From IMG/VR virus record IMGVR_UViG_3300005937_000013: 20,000 bases of DNA; one strand, written 5' to 3'. Under the pieces are notes generated by a model. It made no database searches and was not told the origin of the DNA. It saw only the letters and a program-made list of their open reading frames with translations. The position numbers were made by a program, and so were the translations under genes. Source of the DNA: an uncultured virus (IMG/VR IMGVR_UViG_3300005937_000013). Lineage: Duplodnaviria > Heunggongvirae > Uroviricota > Caudoviricetes. Shown here one piece after another: positions 1 to 20,000 of the stretch; position 1 is the first letter of the stretch, and each line of letters starts with the position of its first letter.

Positions 1-38
1 TGGAGCCCCATCCAGGGCGAGCAAGAGAGAGGAGCGAG

Positions 39-1631: not shown

Positions 1632-1683
1632 GGGTGGTGGATGGACCACAAGGTCCGAACGACAAAGAGAGAGGAGCGAGACC

Positions 1684-2595: not shown

Positions 2596-2748
2596 ATGTT
2601 GTTCACGGCGGGACTGCTCGCCCTGTACCTAGCCTTCGAGCTGGTAGGGTGGCTACGAGACCGACGCAAGATCGCGCAGTGTGGGGACTGCGAACAGACC
2701 GACGGGGAAGTTCCCCTCGGACAAGAGAGAGGAGAAACGGAGACATGA
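2596..2748 (+). CDS. Small membrane protein (50 aa, N-terminal TM, CxxC)
   Basis: AAGGAG SD; MLFTAGLLALYLAFELVGWL hydrophobic stretch; ATGA overlap. Confidence 0.65.
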   Translation: MLFTAGLLALYLAFELVGWLRDRRKIAQCGDCEQTDGEVPLGQERGETET

Positions 2749-3248: not shown

Positions 3249-3268
3249 TTCTCATCGGTCTCCCAGGC

Positions 3269-3297
3269 TAGCTCACCGCTTTGTGGTGTGCTAGCTT
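3269..3297 (+). promoter_or_regulatory. Conserved phage promoter TAGCTC-17-TAGCTT (TGn extended -10, dyad symmetric)
   Basis: Matches repeated element at 5452, 8502, 10608, 11773. Confidence 0.65.
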
Positions 3298-5365: not shown

Positions 5366-5409
5366 TGTGGCGGGTGGACGCCTAGCTGTCGAGGCGGACA
5401 CCTTCTACA

Positions 5410-5445
5410 GCCACGGGGAGGGGCCCCCCCGCCTCTCCCCGTGGC
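5410..5445 (+). terminator. Stem-loop, putative terminator
   Basis: Perfect 11-bp inverted repeat GCCACGGGGAG/CTCCCCGTGGC after the large gene. Confidence 0.6.
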
Positions 5446-5451
5446 ACCACC

Positions 5452-5480
5452 TAGCACACCGAGAAGGGGGGTGCTAGGCT
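5452..5480 (+). promoter_or_regulatory. Conserved phage promoter TAGCAC-17-TAGGCT
   Basis: TGn extended -10; perfect dyad CCTAGCAC/GTGCTAGG; motif copy 5498-5509 downstream. Confidence 0.7.
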
Positions 5481-5516
5481 GGGGGTAGGAAGCCAACAAG
5501 AGAGAGGAGCCAAGCG

Positions 5517-8292: not shown

Positions 8293-8504
8293 TGACCTGG
8301 CCGCGCGTGAGCATCATCGACGCACCTGACGGGATGTGCGCTGCCCAGGTCGAGATGGAGGCCGGGAGAACCACAGCTGACCGGGGACGTGGTGGCCGTG
8401 CTAGGTACCACGCCATCGGCAGGCCCGCCAACACCGAGGTCCAGGCTCTCCGTCACCTGATCGAGGACCTGACGATCGCCATCACAGGCGAACAACCCAT
8501 CTAG
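8292..8504 (+). CDS. Small hypothetical protein
   Basis: TGATG coupling; stop TAG is the start of the next promoter. Confidence 0.7.
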   Translation: MTWPRVSIIDAPDGMCAAQVEMEAGRTTADRGRGGRARYHAIGRPANTEVQALRHLIEDLTIAITGEQPI

Positions 8505-8530
8505 CTCACCGCCACCCCACCTGCTAGGGT
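8502..8530 (+). promoter_or_regulatory. Conserved phage promoter TAGCTC-17-TAGGGT
   Basis: Repeated element; motif variant at 8541-8554. Confidence 0.7.
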
Positions 8531-8561
8531 GGGGTAGGCCAAGAGAGAGAGGAGCCGTTAG

Positions 8562-10323: not shown

Positions 10324-10610
10324 TGCGATTTGACTGGGGTGACCGGTGGCGAGCGATGCGGACGCGGTGGCGTCAGGACGCCGAACAACGGAGACGATCA
10401 ATGGGTGAGAACGAACTGAGGTTGACGCAGTGCGTGTGCTACAGGGTGATGACCTGTCACTACTGCCACGAGCAGCTAGTAGAGGACGAGCTGAACGTGA
10501 GCGACGACCAGGCCTGGGCGGACTACGTTCTCCATGGTCCGGTCATCGACCTACACATCCTCGCCCACGCCTACTGTGCGGAGGGCCAGGACGAGGTGGA
10601 GAGGGCTTAG
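10323..10610 (+). CDS. Hypothetical Cys/His protein (start may be 10401)
   Basis: CHYC and HAYC motifs; GGAG before ATG10401. Confidence 0.65.
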   Translation: MRFDWGDRWRAMRTRWRQDAEQRRRSMGENELRLTQCVCYRVMTCHYCHEQLVEDELNVSDDQAWADYVLHGPVIDLHILAHAYCAEGQDEVERA

Positions 10611-10636
10611 CTCACCGCCCCACCACCTGCTACCAT
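10608..10636 (+). promoter_or_regulatory. Conserved phage promoter TAGCTC-17-TACCAT
   Basis: Repeated element; motif copy 10648-10659. Confidence 0.7.
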
Positions 10637-10667
10637 GAGTGTGAGCCAAGAGAGAGGAGCAAGCGAG

Positions 10668-10997: not shown

Positions 10998-11143
10998 TGT
11001 TCCCCTGCCGAGTTCTGTGGTGGACCGTGATGCTGTACTGGGATGACATCGTGATCGTGTGGGTGTGTGAGCACGGCAACGCCCACATGCTCGACTTTGG
11101 TGTCGGGCAGGCAAGGGAGATCTTCCGTGGTGGGTCCACGTAA
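10997..11143 (+). CDS. 48-aa hypothetical protein (not in ORF track)
   Basis: TGATG coupling; fills gap. Confidence 0.45.
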   Translation: MFPCRVLWWTVMLYWDDIVIVWVCEHGNAHMLDFGVGQAREIFRGGST

Positions 11144-11375
11144 GGTTCGGATCGACGAGGAGGTCATCAACGGTGACATCACGGTCACCGAGGTGATCAT
11201 GCGGAAGTCGAACATGAAGCGCCCCGACCTGCTCTGGTACGAGCTCTGGGTCAAGATCAGGGGTCACCGAGAGGAGATCCGACTCGCGATCTTCATGCGT
11301 CCCAGCGACCTGAAGATCAACGCGAGAAGGATCAGCACCAACCACGACGTACCCATCCGGAGTTTCCTCCCGTGA
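11127..11375 (+). CDS. Hypothetical beta-rich protein
   Basis: GGGAG SD; 3' part of ORF 11067..11375. Confidence 0.7.
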   Translation: MVGPRKVRIDEEVINGDITVTEVIMRKSNMKRPDLLWYELWVKIRGHREEIRLAIFMRPSDLKINARRISTNHDVPIRSFLP

Positions 11376-11392
11376 GGGGCTGGTGCTACACT
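11364..11392 (+). promoter_or_regulatory. Putative promoter TTCCTC-17-TACACT (TGn extended -10) for the structured RNA
   Basis: Same spacing and position relative to motif variant 11402-11413 as the other promoters. Confidence 0.6.
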
Positions 11393-11414
11393 GGGTGCCA
11401 CAAGAGGGAGGAGC

Positions 11415-11531
11415 GAGTCGGTGTGAGCCTCCCGGGGTTGGTCGTATGTTCGTGTGAGCCACGAACGGCGCGGTCTGGAGTCTCCTCTCTCTTCCGTGCC
11501 GCGGCCAACTCCGGCAGCCTCATACCGACTC
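11415..11531 (+). ncRNA. Putative novel structured RNA: ~30-bp basal helix plus two hairpins, loop antisense to the repeated RBS motif
   Basis: Stems 11415-27/11519-31, 11432-44/11502-14, 11448-54/11460-66, 11467-73/11494-500; non-WC pairs in stems are G-U; loop contains CTCCTCTCTCTT (11482-11493). Confidence 0.7.
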
Positions 11532-11553
11532 ACCCAAGAGAGAGGAGAACCAC

Positions 11554-11775
11554 GTGACGTTTACCGTCATCGTATCCGAGCACAAGTACGAGGACATGAC
11601 CGACGACCAGATCGCCGAGTTCGGGCTTGTGGACTCCAACGCGAGCCCGTCGGGGTTTCTACGGATCAGCCACGTCGTAGGTCCCAAGAACCACCGGATC
11701 GGTCGGGTCGATCCCATGGAGAACTTCGGGACGATCTCGGGTGTTCGCATCACCTGGGTCGAGGAAGGTCACTAG
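11554..11775 (+). CDS. Small hypothetical protein
   Basis: GTG 6 nt after motif copy 11536-11547. Confidence 0.75.
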   Translation: MTFTVIVSEHKYEDMTDDQIAEFGLVDSNASPSGFLRISHVVGPKNHRIGRVDPMENFGTISGVRITWVEEGH

Positions 11776-11801
11776 CACTCCGTTCTGCCAGGTGGTAGGC
11801 T
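11773..11801 (+). promoter_or_regulatory. Conserved phage promoter TAGCAC-17-TAGGCT
   Basis: Repeated element; motif copy 11812-11823. Confidence 0.7.
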
Positions 11802-11831
11802 GGAGTCACACAAGAGAGAGGAGCGGTTGTA

Positions 11832-12593
11832 ATGCCCGACGAGAACAACGGGGTGGACGAGTCCATCCTCGAGAAGATCCAGAAGGTCCTGAACCTCGCC
11901 GAGAAGGCGGGAACCCAGGGCGAGGCCGAGGCAGCGTACGCGAGAGCCACGGCGCTCATGACCAAGTACGCGGTCGACCAGGTCATGCTCGATGCCCTGG
12001 GCGAGGGTGGCAAGAGAGACGAGATCACCGCGATGGCGATGCCCTACGGGTCCACCTACTGGCAGGCGACACGGTATGTTCTGATCGAGCTAGGGTTAGC
12101 CCTCGGTCTCCAGCCGGCAGTGAGTGACTACTACGACAGGAAGAACGGTCACCTGGACTGGTGGGGCTGGAAGTCCGAGCTCAAGACTGCCGAGCTGATG
12201 TGGGCGAGTCTCGAGATCCAGATGATGCAGGCGGCCGGCGTTCACATGCGGGTGGCATCCAGGGTCACTGACCGCGAGGAGCGGTTCAAGGAGAAGCGGT
12301 CGTTCATCATCGGCTTTGGCCAGGCGGTGGCCAGGCGAGTTCGTCAGGAACGCCTCGAGGCACGGATCAAGGAGAGCCAGGCACGGGGGAGCTCAGGTCT
12401 CCTGCCCGCCCTGGTGAGCCGGGACGACCAGTTCCGTGAGTTCATCGACCAGAGGTTCCGAAAGGGGAAGGATCTTCGACCCCCCAAGATCCACGAGGAC
12501 GGTTACCTTGGCGGCCAGCGGGCAGGCCAGACAGCGGACCTCAACGCACCGGGGGGACGTGTCGGTGGCCGACGAGAGGAGTTGGAACGGTGA
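11832..12593 (+). CDS. DUF2786-domain protein
   Basis: ILEKIQKVLNLAEKAGTQGEAEAAYARATALMTKY N-terminus; RSFIIGF and GQRAGQTADL C-terminal motifs. Confidence 0.85.
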   Translation: MPDENNGVDESILEKIQKVLNLAEKAGTQGEAEAAYARATALMTKYAVDQVMLDALGEGGKRDEITAMAMPYGSTYWQATRYVLIELGLALGLQPAVSDYYDRKNGHLDWWGWKSELKTAELMWASLEIQMMQAAGVHMRVASRVTDREERFKEKRSFIIGFGQAVARRVRQERLEARIKESQARGSSGLLPALVSRDDQFREFIDQRFRKGKDLRPPKIHEDGYLGGQRAGQTADLNAPGGRVGGRREELER

Positions 12594-14299: not shown

Positions 14300-14580
14300 T
14301 GAGGTTTCGCCTTCTGGCGGGACTCGTGGCGGTGGGGGTCATCATCATGACCCTCACCGCCAGCGCGTCCTGCGACGAGAAGGGACTGGGGGACGCTCCT
14401 GTCGGGGAGCAACACGAGGTCGAACGACAGGTCTGGCTAGCGCCTGACCAGTTTCCCAACATCTCGGCGTGGTGCATCGGCAAGGATGGCATCTACGTCA
14501 GTACGCGGCCACACTACGAGGTGGTCCCCAACGATCCCAACTGTGCTGAGGGCGGGATCCTGAGAGGAAGCGGTGAGTGA
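14296..14580 (+). CDS. Small secreted protein or lipoprotein
   Basis: Signal peptide ending ASAS-C; two further Cys. Confidence 0.75.
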   Translation: MMRFRLLAGLVAVGVIIMTLTASASCDEKGLGDAPVGEQHEVERQVWLAPDQFPNISAWCIGKDGIYVSTRPHYEVVPNDPNCAEGGILRGSGE

Positions 14581-14926
14581 GGACAAGTCGCCGCTCCGGC
14601 TTGCGCGGGAGAGGGCTGGCCTCTCCCGCAAGGCCATAGCCGAGAAGCTCGGCACGACCGAGCATCACTACTGGCACTGCGAGATGCCGCCCTTCGACGG
14701 CCCAGCGGACGTTCTTCAGCGGGCCTGTGAGCTTCTAGGGGTGGCTACCTCACCCCAGGGGACCCCACGGAAGTCAGTGAGAGAGGCACCTAGGGAGCCT
14801 CAAACCTGGCGATGTCCCAAGTGTGGAGCCACCACCAAGCAACCAGCCTCCGCCAGTGAGGTCGGGCACTCCTGCTACAAGACGGGCAGTGCCCAGTACG
14901 TAAAGATGATCCTGGTGACCGAGTAG
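14573..14926 (+). CDS. XRE-family HTH protein with C-terminal zinc ribbon
   Basis: LRLARERAGLSRKAIAEKLGTT HTH; CPKC...HSC. Confidence 0.8.
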   Translation: MSEDKSPLRLARERAGLSRKAIAEKLGTTEHHYWHCEMPPFDGPADVLQRACELLGVATSPQGTPRKSVREAPREPQTWRCPKCGATTKQPASASEVGHSCYKTGSAQYVKMILVTE

Positions 14927-14969
14927 ACGGTCAGGCTAAGCTGGATGGGAACCAAGAGAGAGGAGCGAG

Positions 14970-15305
14970 ATGACTACATCATCGAGTCTTATTCGTGAGT
15001 ATGTGATAGAGCATCCTCGCCAGAAACTAACCATTCGTCAGATCTGGCGAGCACTACAGAACAATCCTGACAAGGTTCCGGTGACAGAAACACAAGTGAT
15101 GAATTGGTGTTCCGACCGGATGGCAACTCCTCGAGATATCGACGTTCCACTTCAACGGGTGGCTAAGGGAACATACCTTTACGATCCCGATGGACAACCT
15201 ACCAGCGGTGAACGTCGAGTATTCGAGGAGGTCGGGATGGACCGTGATGGACGAATTGTTCTCCAGTGTACCGATGGAGACTTCTACATCGCGAAGAAGA
15301 TCTAA
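14970..15305 (+). CDS. Hypothetical protein, possibly winged-helix; AT-richer codons
   Basis: ATG 4 nt after motif 14954-14965; LQRVAKGTYLY wing-like motif. Confidence 0.75.
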   Translation: MTTSSSLIREYVIEHPRQKLTIRQIWRALQNNPDKVPVTETQVMNWCSDRMATPRDIDVPLQRVAKGTYLYDPDGQPTSGERRVFEEVGMDRDGRIVLQCTDGDFYIAKKI

Positions 15306-15532: not shown

Positions 15533-15818
15533 CAAGATCGCCACAGGCCGGTACGAGAAGGCGAAGGAGTACGCCCGCACCCTCTACCGGATCCACAACC
15601 TGCCCGTGGGGAGGGGACACCGTCGGTTCCGGATGGACCTGGTGCCCACGCACTACAACGACCTTGCCTCCCTCGCGACCCAGGAGTTCTGGGCGAAGGT
15701 CCGGGAGGCGACACCTAGGTACGCCAAGAAACCCGATGGGCTACCTAGCCAGGAGACGGTCGACGTCATCTGCGACCTCATCAGGTTTGTCGAAGAGTGC
15801 CGGCGTTCATCGGCGTGA
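15501..15818 (+). CDS. Hypothetical protein
   Basis: AGGAG SD. Confidence 0.75.
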   Translation: MGQITLDPLGDKIATGRYEKAKEYARTLYRIHNLPVGRGHRRFRMDLVPTHYNDLASLATQEFWAKVREATPRYAKKPDGLPSQETVDVICDLIRFVEECRRSSA

Positions 15819-16111
15819 GGTACTGGAAGGTGGGGGTCGACGAGCGGTGGGCTGTCCATGCACACTGTCGGAGCTCAGTCACCGACATCCAGCGGCACAT
15901 CGTGCGACTGTTTGGTGGCACCGACCTGGAGACGTCCGCGTACAGGAAGGCGCGAGAGAGGAAGGCGAAGCAGATCTGTGAGCTATGTCCGGTGAGGTTG
16001 TCCTGCCTCAACCACGCCCTCGCGTACAGGGAGACCGGGATCTGGGGCGGGACCGACGACAACGAGCGTAGGGAAATGCTCGGCATCCGCAAGAGAGGAG
16101 CAATCGTATGA
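15815..16111 (+). CDS. whiB: WhiB-family Fe-S transcription factor
   Basis: WAVHAHC...AKQICELCPVRLSC...GIWGG..NER: four Cys plus G(I/V)WGG. Confidence 0.9.
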   Translation: MRYWKVGVDERWAVHAHCRSSVTDIQRHIVRLFGGTDLETSAYRKARERKAKQICELCPVRLSCLNHALAYRETGIWGGTDDNERREMLGIRKRGAIV

Positions 16112-17145
16112 GAGTCGGACTGATAGCACCCCCGTGGTTACCGGTGCCTCCGCTGGGGTACGGAGGCACAGAGGCGGTGGTGGACTACCTCGCAAGGGAG
16201 CTCGACCGACGAGGGCACACGGTGGTCCTGTGTGCTCCCGGTGACTCCACCTGTCCGGTGGACATCTACTCGCCCATGGTGGAGTCGGTGGGGCTCAACG
16301 CCGACAGGTTCGTCAAGTGGGAGCTAGCCCACGTGATCGACAGCTACCAGTTCCTCGAGGAGTGGCAGCCGGACGTGATCCACGATCACACCCTGGCAGG
16401 ACCGCTCATCAGCCTCGGCTACGAGATGCCGGTGGTCACCACGAACCACAACACGTTCCGGTGGGAACACGAGATCACCTACCAGATGCTCGCGAACCAC
16501 GGTGTTCCCATCGTGGCGATCTCCCACCACCAGGCGAGCACCACCAGGGCACCCCTGGCGGGGGTGGTCTACAACGGGGTGGACACGTACGCGGTGGACC
16601 TGTGTGACGGGGGTGGTGGCTACGCCCTGTGCATCACCCGGTTCGACGACGAGAAGGGTGTGACGGAGGGCATCAGGGTCGCCCTGGAGGCAAGGATCGA
16701 CCTCAAGATCATCGCCAAGCCACCGTCACCGGGGCAGCGGATCTACTTCGAGGAGCAGGTGGACCCGTGGCTCAACCACCCCGCGATCGAGTGGGTGGGT
16801 GAGGTCACCGGCAAGCAGAGGGCCGAGCTCATCGGTGGAGCGTTCTGTCTCATCAACCCGATCAAGTGGGACGAGCCCTTCGGCATGGTGATGATCGACG
16901 CCCTCGCCCAGGGCACCCCCGTGGTGTCCATGGAGCGGGGCGCTGCCACCGAGATCGTGAGAGACGGTGAAACCGGCTACCTGTGCGACAGCCAGACGTC
17001 GATGGCGCTAGGGGTCGAGCTCTGCAAGCGTGGCGACATCCACCGTCCACGGTGCAGGGAGGACGCCATCCAGCGGTTCTCGGTCCAGCGGATGGTAACA
17101 AGTTATCTCGAGATCTACGAGGACGTGGTGAGGGGGAACTGGTGA
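16108..17145 (+). CDS. GT4-family (GT-B) glycosyltransferase
   Basis: IAPPWLPVPPLGYGGTE, EKG, WDEPFGMVMIDALAQGTPVV. Confidence 0.9.
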   Translation: MRVGLIAPPWLPVPPLGYGGTEAVVDYLARELDRRGHTVVLCAPGDSTCPVDIYSPMVESVGLNADRFVKWELAHVIDSYQFLEEWQPDVIHDHTLAGPLISLGYEMPVVTTNHNTFRWEHEITYQMLANHGVPIVAISHHQASTTRAPLAGVVYNGVDTYAVDLCDGGGGYALCITRFDDEKGVTEGIRVALEARIDLKIIAKPPSPGQRIYFEEQVDPWLNHPAIEWVGEVTGKQRAELIGGAFCLINPIKWDEPFGMVMIDALAQGTPVVSMERGAATEIVRDGETGYLCDSQTSMALGVELCKRGDIHRPRCREDAIQRFSVQRMVTSYLEIYEDVVRGNW

Positions 17146-19001: not shown

Positions 19002-20000
19002 CTATACACCGTAAGGGGCGGGTCCGTTGCGGCGCGTCCACCCCACCCAGCGCATGGTCCCTCCGTACGCCGGGACCCTTCCTCGCTCAAGTCCTCGCTC
19101 CTCGAGTGCCCGGTTGAACGTTCGGCGTCCCCAGGGCTTCTCGCCCGATGCCGACTCGTGTGCGACGTACGTCGTGTACATCTCGTCGGTTGTCAGTGAC
19201 TCCTCCTTGACGTCGGTCTTCTCGAGCGCGTCCTCAACAAACGCAGCTACGGGGTTGGAGTCACGGTCGTACGCCCGCATGATCTCGTCAAGCCAGGGCA
19301 TTCCCCCGAGCCCCTTCTCCTGCCAGAGATAGTTGCCGTTGACGAGCCACGCTCCTATCGCGATCTGCGCCTGGGGGTCATACTCGAGATAGTTCCTCAC
19401 GTCCTCGTTACGCGGCTCAAACCGGTGGATGAACGGGAGCATCTTCAGTCGATTCTGGGTGGCCTTGTCCGGCGAGGTGGGTACGAAGTTGGTGTGCATC
19501 ACGAGCTTGGCCTGGGGATGGTACGAGTAGGTTCCCTTGTACAGTGCCCGAGCACTCACGGAATCTCCACCCGAGAACGACTTGAGGAACCCGTCGTTGA
19601 ACTTAGCTCCTCGGGTCAGCTCACCGATCACGATCATGCGAGCACCACGGGCGTAGTTCTTGAGTTCGGCGAGGTTGACGTAGCCATGGCGTCCCCGCTC
19701 CACGGCCTCAGCGGGCCAGGAGGCGGCGTAACCGGCCTCGGTGGTGGTCCCCAACACCCGGTAGATGGGTTCCACGGCGGTGGACTTGCCGGTGTCGGTC
19801 TCTCCAAACGGGAGAAGGATCGCCTTATCCTTCGTGATACCGGTCAGGCAGCTTCCCATGAACGCCTGGAACGTCATCCGCATGTCATCGTCAGGGATGG
19901 CGCTGAGTAGAAACTCCTCCCAGATCGGGTCGCGTGCGTCACGGTGATACTCCACCGTGCATGAGCGGGTGATCAGGTCACCCGGGTCGGGTGAGCGAAG
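19002..20000 (-). CDS. Phage/plasmid P4/D5-family primase-helicase (SF3), 5' end beyond window
   Basis: Walker A GETDTGKST, Walker B MIVIGE, motif C MHTN, LKSFSGGDSVSARALY; frame open to window edge. Confidence 0.9.
   Translation of the reverse strand, partial: LRSPDPGDLITRSCTVEYHRDARDPIWEEFLLSAIPDDDMRMTFQAFMGSCLTGITKDKAILLPFGETDTGKSTAVEPIYRVLGTTTEAGYAASWPAEAVERGRHGYVNLAELKNYARGARMIVIGELTRGAKFNDGFLKSFSGGDSVSARALYKGTYSYHPQAKLVMHTNFVPTSPDKATQNRLKMLPFIHRFEPRNEDVRNYLEYDPQAQIAIGAWLVNGNYLWQEKGLGGMPWLDEIMRAYDRDSNPVAAFVEDALEKTDVKEESLTTDEMYTTYVAHESASGEKPWGRRTFNRALEERGLERGRVPAYGGTMRWVGWTRRNGPAPYGV

Follow-up and report, generated by a model that had tools for sequence, protein, structure and literature searches.

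A predicted structured intergenic RNA in an uncultured soil phage with a loop exactly antisense to the phage's leader motif: a possible anti-leader riboregulator

Introduction

The c4 antisense RNA of phages P1 and P7 and the CI RNA of satellite P4 (RF01695) lie on the same strand as their targets and upstream of them, their loops are complementary to downstream ribosome-binding regions, and they act in trans after excision from the leader, which in P1 and P4 is carried out by RNase P. Gram-positive sRNAs such as RsaE/RoxS and the actinobacterial 6C use C/U-rich loops to cover Shine-Dalgarno sequences, while in T7-like early mRNAs the RNase III sites are intergenic hairpins.

Cluster K1 mycobacteriophages carry one reversed start-associated sequence (SAS), which the available text of Pope et al. 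2011 (PMC3203893) leaves unexplained; the function of SAS has been open since 2011 and is called unknown in the available parts of papers from 2024-2025 (PMC11373665, PMC12699233). As far as their available text goes, an antisense RNA is proposed neither by Pope et al. 2011 (PMC3203893) nor by Freeman et al. 2024 (PMC11373665), that of a 2025 SAS survey (PMC12699233) uses none of the words antisense, hairpin and non-coding, and our literature search found no paper proposing an antisense RNA directed at SAS or at a similar leader shared among phage genes.

Here we describe an RNA element located in the window, meaning the whole 20-kb stretch of DNA that was analysed, which comes from an uncultured soil phage of actinobacteria. 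The original prediction held that no known family matches this element; this stands for Rfam, where nothing reached threshold, but it leaves out the SAS literature, where the nearest known context is found. Like the SAS system, the window has an over-conserved 12-13-nt motif with a Shine-Dalgarno core 3-10 nt before starts, found in one orientation in front of many non-structural genes and often behind upstream elements that bear promoters (predicted ones in the window), together with exactly one reversed copy. The motif itself differs from the Cluster K SAS, and no sequence or structural homology was found between the two systems. The predicted window RNA is a three-way junction on a 31-pair basal helix and precedes a gene that is small and non-structural; the K1 hairpin is located in the leader of the late operon.

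The resemblance to c4 and CI lies in an antisense loop upstream of a target on the same strand, the anti-motif at 11482-93 being 42 nt 5' of the motif at 11536-47; unlike them, the window RNA has no Rfam match and no tRNA-like fold for RNase P, and whereas c4 serves one operon through one or two target boxes private to it, the single loop described here fits the motif of at least ten leaders. With RsaE/RoxS and 6C the element shares an unpaired pyrimidine-rich loop on a GC-rich stem and, as partners (predicted ones in the window), G-rich ribosome-binding sites, for which extended complementarity is not required, but those RNAs belong to the host and use short, C-rich seeds on diverse targets, in contrast with a 12-nt seed exactly complementary to a phage-private motif, and 6C has no Rfam match in the window. 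The T7 RNase III sites are likewise long double-stranded intergenic hairpins in a polycistronic phage transcript (putatively so in the window), but they lack an antisense copy of a shared leader, and cleavage at the window element is only putative.

Results

Locus and flanking genes

The structured RNA sits in a 178-nt spacer separating two + strand genes, with the following features around it:

11067..11375, + strand: upstream gene of 102 aa, from the ORF list, codon-position GC 0.50/0.46/0.82, last codons containing UUCCUCCC
11364..11371, + strand: UUCCUCCC, pairing with GGGAGGAG of motif copy 1 in both MFE and centroid as a small 5' hairpin (11364-11413)
11384..11392, + strand: extended -10-like TGCTACACT, 9 nt 5' of motif copy 1, without the CTAGCNCNCCG block
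11402..11413, + strand: leader motif copy 1, AAGAGGGAGGAG, with 1 mismatch, loop pairing kept via one G-U
11421..11426, + strand: GTG TGA start-stop located in the basal helix (left arm), 7 nt after motif copy 1, which is normal leader spacing
11536..11547, + strand: leader motif copy 2, exact, the downstream gene's Shine-Dalgarno, 4 nt 3' of the helix and mostly unpaired
11554..11775, + strand: downstream gene of 73 aa, GTG start, codon-position GC 0.58/0.38/0.82

No PHROG or Pfam family matched the upstream or the downstream gene, and the IMG/VR protein search returned no relatives of the latter. The pairing between UUCCUCCC and GGGAGGAG is possible only in read-through transcripts begun upstream. 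The leader of motif copy 1 and that at 1665 form a repeat family, with 84% identity across 25 nt. Coding potential across the hairpin was considered in the form of a 61-aa ORF and rejected on its codon-position GC of 0.53/0.66/0.71, the genes in the window having GC2 of 0.36-0.51 and GC3 of 0.73-0.91; the hairpin region is non-coding. A repeat search found no second copy of the element within the 20-kb window.

Predicted fold

Folding of 11415-11531 reproduced the architecture originally proposed, namely two 7-bp hairpins on a basal helix of about 30 bp that contains two C-C mismatches:

11415..11531, + strand: structured RNA, a three-way junction on a 31-pair basal helix that contains two C-C mismatches, based on predicted fold, strand comparison and stability scan
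11448..11466, + strand: hairpin 1, 7 bp (11448-54/11460-66), loop UGAGC
11467..11500, + strand: hairpin 2, 7 bp (11467-73/11494-11500), 20-nt loop at 11474-11493

In the predicted fold 11415-11445 pairs with 11501-11531 on the + strand, with the C-C mismatches at 11428/11518 and 11431/11515, and this helix opens into the three-way junction bearing the two hairpins; pair probabilities across the fold are 0.93-1.0 for most pairs. The surrounding 190-nt region folds on the + strand at -103.1 kcal/mol, shuffles averaging -76.7 (z -6.04) and 0 of 200 matching this stability, while its minus strand reaches -87.8 kcal/mol (z -3.59) and is thus about 15 kcal/mol worse. A scan of both strands with a 130-nt window ranks the 11415-11531 site second in stability within the 20 kb. 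Another large structure was seen in the spacer 5366-5490 (z -4.4).

Non-Watson-Crick pairs inside the stems had been described as four in number and all G-U on the + strand; the second part holds, but five were found (11423-11523, 11436-11510, 11442-11504, 11445-11501 and 11470-11497), with no A-C pair among the roughly 49 pairs of the + strand fold. Were they neutral transitions in a palindromic DNA, a 5:0 split all one way would have p of about 0.03 by simple arithmetic. On these models 11415-11531 is a real structured RNA of the + strand.

Leader motif and its antisense copy

The leader motif, AAGAGAGAGGAG, has 8 exact + strand copies in the window, and in 8/8 an ATG or GTG start codon follows 4-10 nt 3' of the copy, in agreement with the earlier statement that it precedes at least 8 start codons. 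Allowing up to 2 mismatches there are 14 matches against 2.9 expected, and 0 of 200 shuffles reach 14. What is found is therefore an asymmetric pre-start motif of the SAS type, longer than a Shine-Dalgarno, in one orientation and far above chance (14 vs 2.9; 8/8 starts). The minus strand has one exact copy, which lies inside the 20-nt loop:

11482..11493, + strand: anti-motif CUCCUCUCUCUU, exact complement of the leader motif and its sole antisense copy at up to 2 mismatches within the window

The motif count bears out the earlier claim that this loop holds the only antisense copy in 20 kb, and by base composition and simple arithmetic about 0.0008 exact antisense 12-mers would be expected by chance per 20 kb. 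Also as first proposed, G-U pairing lets the loop accommodate the variants at 11402 and 8543. Four loop bases (11487-90) weakly self-pair with GGAG at 11477-80, which is why opening of the anti-motif is computed to cost about 6.5 kcal/mol. A further sequence, GTGTGAGCC, occurs exactly three times in 20 kb, at 10639 (between -10 and motif), 11421 and 11452.

Promoter-like sites and the end of the transcript

A promoter-like sequence had been placed just upstream of the element, and TGCTACACT at 11384-92 fits this as the phage's own type without the CTAGCNCNCCG block; its layout before motif copy 1 is that of 4 other promoter-like sites. The TGNTANNNT word is not enriched as such (12 found vs 7.4 expected), and 5 of its 7 + strand sites lie 9-17 nt 5' of a motif copy. 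The linked arrangement CTAGCNCNCCG-N10-TGNTANNNT, similar to the linked elements of ESAS, is present upstream at 5 sites, for which a promoter role is predicted; four of them precede a motif copy of at most 1 mismatch by 10-17 nt, and for the fifth (3289) the distance is 39 nt, to a copy with 2 mismatches. No terminator-like site was found on the + strand after the helix, where the sequence following 11531 is ACCCAAGAGAGAGGAG, and an intrinsic terminator is ruled out by the lack of a T-run. Given a promoter-like site without the CTAGCNCNCCG block and a helix without a terminator after it, a discrete small RNA is not clearly indicated.

Searches for relatives

At E ≤1 the whole window matched only Chlorobi-1 in Rfam 15 (14841-14910, 18.1 bits vs a threshold of 50), and at E ≤10 the region 11300-11620 matched only plant miRNA-precursor models (23.8 bits vs 168); ARAGORN found no tRNA or tmRNA and no tRNA-like element. 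Comparison with GenBank phages by blastn and tblastn gave no usable homologue, the best protein identities being below 31% (Microbacterium, Mycobacterium and Streptomyces phages), the IMG/VR protein search found no relative of the phage, JGI metagenomes yielded one 26%-identical fragment and no usable homologue, and in a set of 5.8 billion proteins the window's own protein was the sole match. Among the matches listed in the IMG/VR motif-word search there were single chance matches per contig except for one 202-kb contig, which had two matches, widely separated.

A pattern of both arm cores had 0 matches in IMG/VR and one among genomes representing 185,579 species (one genome each), in a MAG that proved unrelated by alignment, about 2 chance matches being expected. 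No natural variants were seen in two DNA runs, which yielded the source contig and, in the second run, two identical short pieces with 0 differences.

The Cluster K parallel

In Adephagia the reversed SAS is located within the 430-nt gap between gp92 and gp93, its core CCUCCUAUCC being the 10-nt loop of a hairpin in the predicted fold (58662-58712 of the Adephagia record). According to the available text of Freeman et al. 2024 (PMC11373665), late transcription begins in this gap in the published Adephagia RNA-seq. An alignment of 12 Cluster K leaders has compensatory changes in 13 of 34 hairpin pairs and 91.1% of its cells paired, vs 35-45% with the partners slid, values that 0 of 500 shuffles reach. 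In K1 phages, Adephagia among them, the reversed SAS thus forms the loop of a hairpin that covaries and belongs to a non-coding leader. Upstream of the Cluster K leader lies a conserved block, TTGRCG-N11-TAGACT, not classed as a canonical -35/-10 pair.

The motifs of the window phage and Cluster K differ outside GGAG (AAGAGAGA- vs GGGAUA-), and in both the window phage and Cluster K1 the loop fits its own phage's motif and not the 16S tail. A Cluster K covariance model (135 positions, 34 pairs) gave 43 weak matches in the window, the best at E 0.24 and none at 11415-11531; therefore the two RNAs are analogous, not homologous.

The parallel is not universal. An anti-SAS within 3 mismatches occurs in 7 of the 16 Cluster K leaders examined; the anti-SAS loop is absent from K3 phages, Yuna and Marshawn, and the hairpin itself from SirPhilip. 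The K5/K6 loops (n=4) pair with only 8 of 10 SAS bases; since the SAS of Unicorn (K6) is the standard one, its loop tracks no changed SAS, and in the 36 kb examined there was no motif complementary to it. In the Microbacterium cluster EF phage AnnaSerena there are 10 SAS copies, but allowing up to 2 mismatches gave no antisense one, and at 3 mismatches its antisense matches are at chance level (21 vs 17.3 expected). As the K3 phages, SirPhilip and AnnaSerena do without an anti-SAS, SAS-type motifs can work without an anti-SAS RNA.

Candidate targets and pairing energetics

Besides the two motif copies flanking the helix, the following leaders are candidate targets, given with their computed net pairing energies:

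23..34, + strand: exact motif, ATG 4 nt downstream, net -12.7 kcal/mol
1665..1676, + strand: exact motif, GTG 7 nt downstream, net -9.8 kcal/mol
2723..2734, + strand: exact motif, ATG 10 nt downstream, net -14.5 kcal/mol
5498..5509, + strand: exact motif behind promoter-like TGCTAGGCT, ATG 7 nt downstream, net -11.5 kcal/mol
8543..8554, + strand: 1-mismatch motif (G-U pairing) behind TGCTAGGGT, TTG 7 nt downstream, net -13.5 kcal/mol
10648..10659, + strand: exact motif behind TGCTACCAT, ATG 8 nt downstream, locally structured, net -5.3 kcal/mol
11812..11823, + strand: exact motif behind TGGTAGGCT, ATG 8 nt downstream, net -11.3 kcal/mol
14954..14965, + strand: exact motif, ATG 4 nt downstream, net -8.4 kcal/mol

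The leader at 11812 is followed by a DUF2786 gene (11832-12593). The loop-leader duplex is computed at about -20 kcal/mol, and net pairing in trans, with both partners opened, lies between about -8 and -14.5 kcal/mol in 8 of the 10 leaders; those at 10648 and 11402 are themselves structured and reach only -5.3 and -4.3 kcal/mol. For comparison, the motif would pair with the 16S 3' tail at -12.4 kcal/mol through 9 bp over motif positions 4-12.

Forcing the loop to pair in cis gives -65.5 kcal/mol with motif 2 and -58.8 with motif 1, vs -90.3 for the MFE, a penalty of 25-31 kcal/mol. The helix holds the loop about 37 bp away from the motif copies on either side, which are out of its reach for as long as the helix is intact. 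A cis anti-Shine-Dalgarno switch of the thermometer or riboswitch type was rejected on these energies (-65.5 vs -90.3 kcal/mol) and on the mostly unpaired state of the Shine-Dalgarno at 11536-47. Modelled geometry and energy favour action in trans, a reading that the analogy with Cluster K1 also supports.

Discussion

Taken as an anti-leader riboregulator acting in trans on the motif-bearing leaders, the element has an explanation that we consider plausible but unproven, with a probability of roughly 0.4, and whose steps, that is production of the RNA, pairing, repression as its direction, timing and processing, we infer from the models and from analogy. Transcription would start at the element's own extended -10-like promoter (11384-92) or arrive by read-through from upstream, and the RNA would fold co-transcriptionally into the very stable three-way structure, so that its 20-nt apical loop would display the 12-nt exact antisense of the leader/Shine-Dalgarno motif. 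The loop would then pair with the motif in the leaders of at least ten phage genes in the window, on RNA molecules other than its own, covering the ribosome-binding site, lowering translation and perhaps creating RNase III substrates, and a single RNA could thus co-regulate the whole motif-bearing gene set. The release of the RNA by RNase III and its use as a temporal switch by silencing, both put forward in the original prediction, may likewise apply.

An explanation that is unlikely, though it deserves serious weight, makes the element purely structural within a polycistronic mRNA, as an RNase III site, a 5'/3' stabiliser or a pause/terminator, the anti-motif being a leftover of cassette assembly with no pairing role. 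A 31-pair helix lies between two same-strand genes, the RNase III sites of T7 early mRNAs are intergenic hairpins, the spacer reuses cassette pieces (GTGTGAGCC at 10639, 11421 and 11452), the leader at 1665 is similar to motif copy 1 and its GTG, and a second large structure is present in the spacer 5366-5490. It is harder to reconcile this explanation with an exact antisense 12-mer expected only about 0.0008 times by chance, with its position in one large open loop, where an inverted duplication would have put it in a stem, or with the same design, covarying stem and conserved loop in an unrelated phage group, and the absence of a T-run after the helix also speaks against it.

That the element is instead a cis switch for the downstream 73-aa gene seems improbable. 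In this case a ribosome that loads at motif copy 1 and the GTG-TGA ahead of transcription of the right arm would keep the basal helix open, and either the loop would then pair with motif copy 2 or the ribosome would be handed across the helix base to the downstream start. Several features are consistent with this: the GTG lies at normal leader spacing from motif 1, within the left arm of the helix and with TGA directly after it, prefix folds leave about 80-110 nt to be transcribed between the left arm and its partner, and the anti-motif is 42 nt 5' of motif 2 in the same RNA. Once the helix has formed, however, the cis pairings are 25-31 kcal/mol worse, and motif 2 is open in the MFE, therefore no sequestration is seen. 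As given in the available text of the two papers, moreover, the K1 late transcript (PMC11373665) enters the left arm, a region without SAS according to Pope et al., and therefore the K1 analogue cannot act in cis.

Very improbable in our view is an element working at the DNA level, whether as a small mobile element of the inverted-repeat type that went into a leader, as an origin or cruciform, or, should the 12-mer be a site for protein binding on DNA, as an operator in reverse orientation. A long inverted repeat is indeed flanked by two 12-mer copies, and the motif stands just 3' of promoter-like sites, as do Cluster A stoperators in the available part of one report (PMC9262239), while RNA-based origins are known in mycobacteriophages from the available part of another (PMC7157519). 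Yet the five non-Watson-Crick pairs are all G-U on the + strand, the minus strand is 15 kcal/mol worse, the window has no second copy and the arm cores have 0 matches in IMG/VR and one unrelated match among the genomes of 185,579 species. A miniature inverted-repeat transposable element was rejected for lack of a second copy in the window and of a true arm-core match in IMG/VR or the 185,579 species, and a target-site duplication is unlikely because the flanking 12-mers belong to a genome-wide motif. Least credible of all is a decoy mimicking the 16S rRNA 3' tail to bind or divert a host or phage factor that recognises the anti-Shine-Dalgarno, without pairing with phage leaders. The loop does have CUCCU, like that tail, and motif positions 4-12 can pair with the tail (9 bp, -12.4 kcal/mol), but the loop complements the phage motif at all 12 positions, including those that depart from perfect 16S complementarity, and the Cluster K1 loop likewise follows SAS rather than the 16S tail.

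Returning to the anti-leader riboregulator, its design would be a variant of antisense control offering a testable explanation for SAS motifs, and a hairpin-displayed antisense copy occurs in two unrelated settings, a soil phage and the Cluster K1 late-operon leader. One may go further and suppose that anti-leader RNAs are a convergent phage timing device, made from a differently timed unit and silencing all tagged mRNAs, possibly with RNase III, which here would concern at least ten leaders; this generalisation is doubtful, though not far-fetched, and the late-operon leader of Cluster K1 could be such a differently timed unit, judging from the available text of Freeman et al. (PMC11373665). 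If true, it would explain why SAS is conserved far beyond the needs of ribosome binding. Confirmation would add a new layer of temporal control to phage development, exerted by one short RNA via a private ribosome-binding tag, and would offer synthetic biology a compact layout for actinobacterial gene circuits. Should the regulatory role be refuted, this otherwise orphan phage still provides a clean case of a large structured RNA between two genes.

Genomic setting

The window (63.6% G+C, with nearly all genes on the + strand) comes from a contig of approximately 70 kb that is present in two rhizosphere metagenome runs, and its proteins share less than 31% identity with those of the nearest GenBank phages. 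The following genes, obtained from protein family searches, mark it as a non-structural region of an actinobacterial phage:

11832-12593, DUF2786 protein
14573-14926, HTH protein
15797-16111, WhiB-family regulator
16108-17145, GT4 glycosyltransferase
19002-19955, minus strand, primase/helicase

The structured RNA lies in a spacer of 178 nt that separates a 102-aa gene (11067-11375) from one of 73 aa (11554-11775), for neither of which did protein family searches return any known family. The elements concerned are, from 5' to 3':

11384-11392, +, extended -10-like TGCTACACT, without the upstream CTAGC block
11402-11413, +, copy 1 of the repeated leader motif, with one A-to-G change
11415-11445 with 11501-11531, +, basal helix, with C-C mismatches at 11428/11518 and 11431/11515
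11421-11426, +, GTG followed directly by TGA, at the normal 7-nt spacing from motif copy 1 and within the left helix arm
Inner end of the basal helix, +, three-way junction with hairpins 1 and 2
11448-11454 with 11460-11466, +, hairpin 1
11467-11473 with 11494-11500, +, hairpin 2; its 20-nt loop (11474-11493) holds the exact antisense of the motif (11482-11493)
11536-11547, +, exact motif copy 2, four nt 3' of the structured RNA and followed by the GTG of the 73-aa gene

The first of these is the promoter-like sequence that the original prediction had placed just upstream. The GTG-TGA represents a minimal ORF or else what is left of a gene start. In transcripts reading through from upstream, UUCCUCCC (11364-11371) can, in the predicted fold, pair with the 3' half of motif copy 1.

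The leader motif

The 20-kb window contains eight exact + strand copies of the motif AAGAGAGAGGAG and a single minus-strand copy, in agreement with the claim that the motif precedes at least eight start codons and has a single antisense copy; at up to two mismatches, 14 matches were observed against 2.9 expected. All eight exact sense copies have an ATG or GTG 4-10 nt to their 3' side, and every one of these starts opens an ORF. The last nine bases of the actinobacterial 16S 3' tail can pair with motif positions 4-12 (one G-U, -12.4 kcal/mol), and the motif can therefore be read as an unusually long Shine-Dalgarno sequence plus three extra conserved bases. The complementarity between loop and motif is not of chance origin.

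A one-mismatch copy, AAGAGAGACGAG, at 12012-12023 lies within the DUF2786 gene, 9 nt 5' of an ATG, and could represent an internal start or simply a chance relic. The ORF at 14970-15305, behind the motif at 14954, has a third-position GC of 0.46, compared with 0.73-0.91 in other genes with correctly set starts, which may indicate recent gene acquisition or a wrong choice of frame.

A strand-specific structured RNA

Folding reproduced the basal helix with its two C-C mismatches, the three-way junction and the hairpins, all of which had been proposed from the sequence. The 190-nt region folds at -103.1 kcal/mol (z -6.04; none of 200 shuffles was as stable) and its reverse complement at only -87.8 kcal/mol, and in a 130-nt window scan of both strands the element ranked second in stability over the 20 kb. 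All G-U pairs were indeed found on the + strand, their number being five rather than the four previously counted, with no A-C pair; by our arithmetic such a one-way split has p ~0.03 if it arose by neutral transitions of a DNA palindrome, and it thus points to selection acting on a + strand RNA. The single ORF spanning the hairpin (61 aa) is without the codon-position GC signature typical of genes in the window. As judged from the predicted fold, this is a genuine structured RNA, specific to one strand and non-coding. It belongs to no family so far described; the Rfam search returned no match, as had been anticipated.

Pairing of the loop in cis and in trans

Approximately 37 stacked base pairs separate the loop from each flanking motif copy, so that these are out of its reach as long as the helix is formed. 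When the loop was made to pair with motif 2 or motif 1, the energy was -65.5 and -58.8 kcal/mol, respectively, as against -90.3 kcal/mol for the native fold, and prefix folds indicated that the native helix closes once its right arm has been made. In the native fold motif 2 stays open, and the ribosome site of the downstream gene is therefore not hidden by the structure. The duplex between loop and leader is worth approximately -20 kcal/mol. Four loop bases are weakly paired with a GGAG in the same loop, which puts the cost of opening it at 6.5 kcal/mol. Of the ten leaders tested, eight have a net intermolecular energy between -8.4 and -14.5 kcal/mol, and the other two, which are structured, give weaker values. 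In these models the complementarity, if used at all, would act in trans, or else once a ribosome had opened the helix at the start-stop.

The best-supported mechanism, to which we give a probability of about 0.4, is a trans-pairing anti-leader RNA that would cover the shared ribosome-binding tag, in a working mode like that of the antisense riboregulators P1 c4 and the C/U-loop sRNAs. The main rival, a structural processing or stability element whose loop goes unused, is less likely. Each loop matches its own phage's motif and not the 16S tail (12/12 in the window, 12/13 in the K1 phage considered below). A minor rival is that a ribosome at the GTG-TGA opens the helix and thereby enables the loop to pair. 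The element is not a widespread mobile repeat, there being no second copy in the window and no both-arm-core match in IMG/VR.

Searches of GenBank phages, IMG/VR, JGI metagenomes, one genome per species and a 5.8-billion-protein set gave no usable homologue; the both-arm-core pattern had one match among 185,579 species (one genome each), unrelated by alignment, and the second sequencing run contained only identical fragments of the phage DNA.

An anti-SAS hairpin in Cluster K phages

In Adephagia (Cluster K1), the start-associated sequence (SAS) has 16 sites on the + strand and one, with one mismatch, on the minus strand of the 39.6 kb examined. This reversed copy, of a kind that Pope et al. 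2011 left unexplained in K1 phages, lies between gp92 and gp93 in a non-coding gap of 430 nt (fold z -8.15), where the anti-SAS core CCUCCUAUCC forms the 10-nt loop of a hairpin of approximately 16 pairs (record 58662-58712). Conservation of the gap extends to 182 phage records, every one from a Mycobacterium phage, and 108 of them keep the hairpin apex at 80% identity or more. Sixteen leaders were fetched and 12 aligned, three K3 phages and Yuna being left out as their apex is replaced or deleted; RNAalifold gave 34 pairs, 13 with compensatory changes, and covariation was found in 7 of the 10 pairs of the hairpin's outer stem. With the structure fixed, 91.1% of cells were paired, compared with 35-45% when partners were slid, and double changes occurred in 13 pairs, compared with 2-5 in slid controls, values that none of 500 shuffles reached.

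The early lytic region of Adephagia comprises genes 44-88 (Freeman et al., PMC11373665), and 10 of the 16 listed SAS genes (47 to 84) fall within it. The K1 loop is located in the spacer from which the late message begins, and most probably belongs to the 5' leader of that message. SAS are confined to the right halves of Cluster K genomes (Pope et al. 2011, PMC3203893); the late transcript, as described, therefore has none, and if the loop acts on SAS it must do so in trans. Late-onset shut-off of SAS-tagged messages is our own inference, put forward neither by Pope et al. nor by Freeman et al.

Window 11415-11531 gave no match to a covariance model built from the Cluster K leader, so the two RNAs are unrelated, and the two motifs differ outside GGAG. 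An anti-SAS within three mismatches is present in 7 of the 16 Cluster K leaders; four K5/K6 leaders have pyrimidine-rich loops pairing with only 8 of 10 SAS bases, although the SAS of Unicorn is the standard one (17 + strand sites) despite its partial loop match. Other sequences occupy the apex in the three K3 phages, Yuna and Marshawn, the hairpin is absent from the SirPhilip leader, and AnnaSerena (Cluster EF) has 10 SAS with no antisense copy at up to two mismatches. An anti-SAS RNA is therefore not required for SAS motifs to function; if real, it is an added layer of control present in some lineages and absent from others. Our literature search found no proposal of an antisense RNA against SAS or a comparable shared phage leader; what is new is a single loop directed against a whole class of phage-private leaders, and its link to the unexplained SAS.

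In the AnnaSerena DNA examined, the 77-nt gap separating genes 19 and 20 contains an antisense match to the Cluster EF SAS with nine contiguous nt (11321-11333, three mismatches over 13 positions), which is at chance level overall. Directly 3' of gp92 in Adephagia (58447-58559), a terminator-like hairpin with a T-run is followed by four tandem CGCCGACGCC-like repeats and then by a conserved TTGRCG-N11-TAGACT block, beyond which lies the structured late leader. Hypothetical proteins are annotated across this leader in Curiosium (103), Validus (103), Fefferhead (96) and Pixie (97); it is non-coding in most GenBank records and shows RNA covariation, and these gene calls are probably spurious.

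Promoter-like sites and other structures

Five of the seven TGNTANNNT words on the + strand are situated 9-17 nt 5' of a motif copy, and most of these motif-linked sites have in common a CTAGCNCNCCG block 10 nt further 5'. A block of approximately 30 nt, CTAGC(T/A)C(A/T)CCG-N10-TG(C/G)TANNNT, is shared by five intergenic sites (3268-3297, 5451-5480, 8501-8530, 10607-10636 and 11772-11801); its ends, CTAGC and GCTAG, are inverted repeats, and it resembles a phage-specific promoter that contains its own operator, and can be compared with the SAS-linked upstream element (ESAS) of Cluster K. The site ahead of the hairpin (11384-11392) has only the -10 part of this block.

Exactly three copies of GTGTGAGCC occur in the window, one between a -10 and a motif (10639-10647) and two inside the structured RNA, in its left arm (11421-11429) and in hairpin 1 (11452-11460), which suggests either assembly of the spacer from pieces of promoter-leader cassettes or an independent role for the word as a site. 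Another intergenic structure of high stability, at 5366-5490 (191-nt fold -96.8 kcal/mol, z -4.4), contains a 15-bp GC hairpin (~5410-5445) without a T-run, and an inverted repeat 3' of it overlaps the promoter-like TGCTAGGCT. An independent Logan contig of the same phage starts within this structure, at about position 5403, which may be a genome end or an assembly break.
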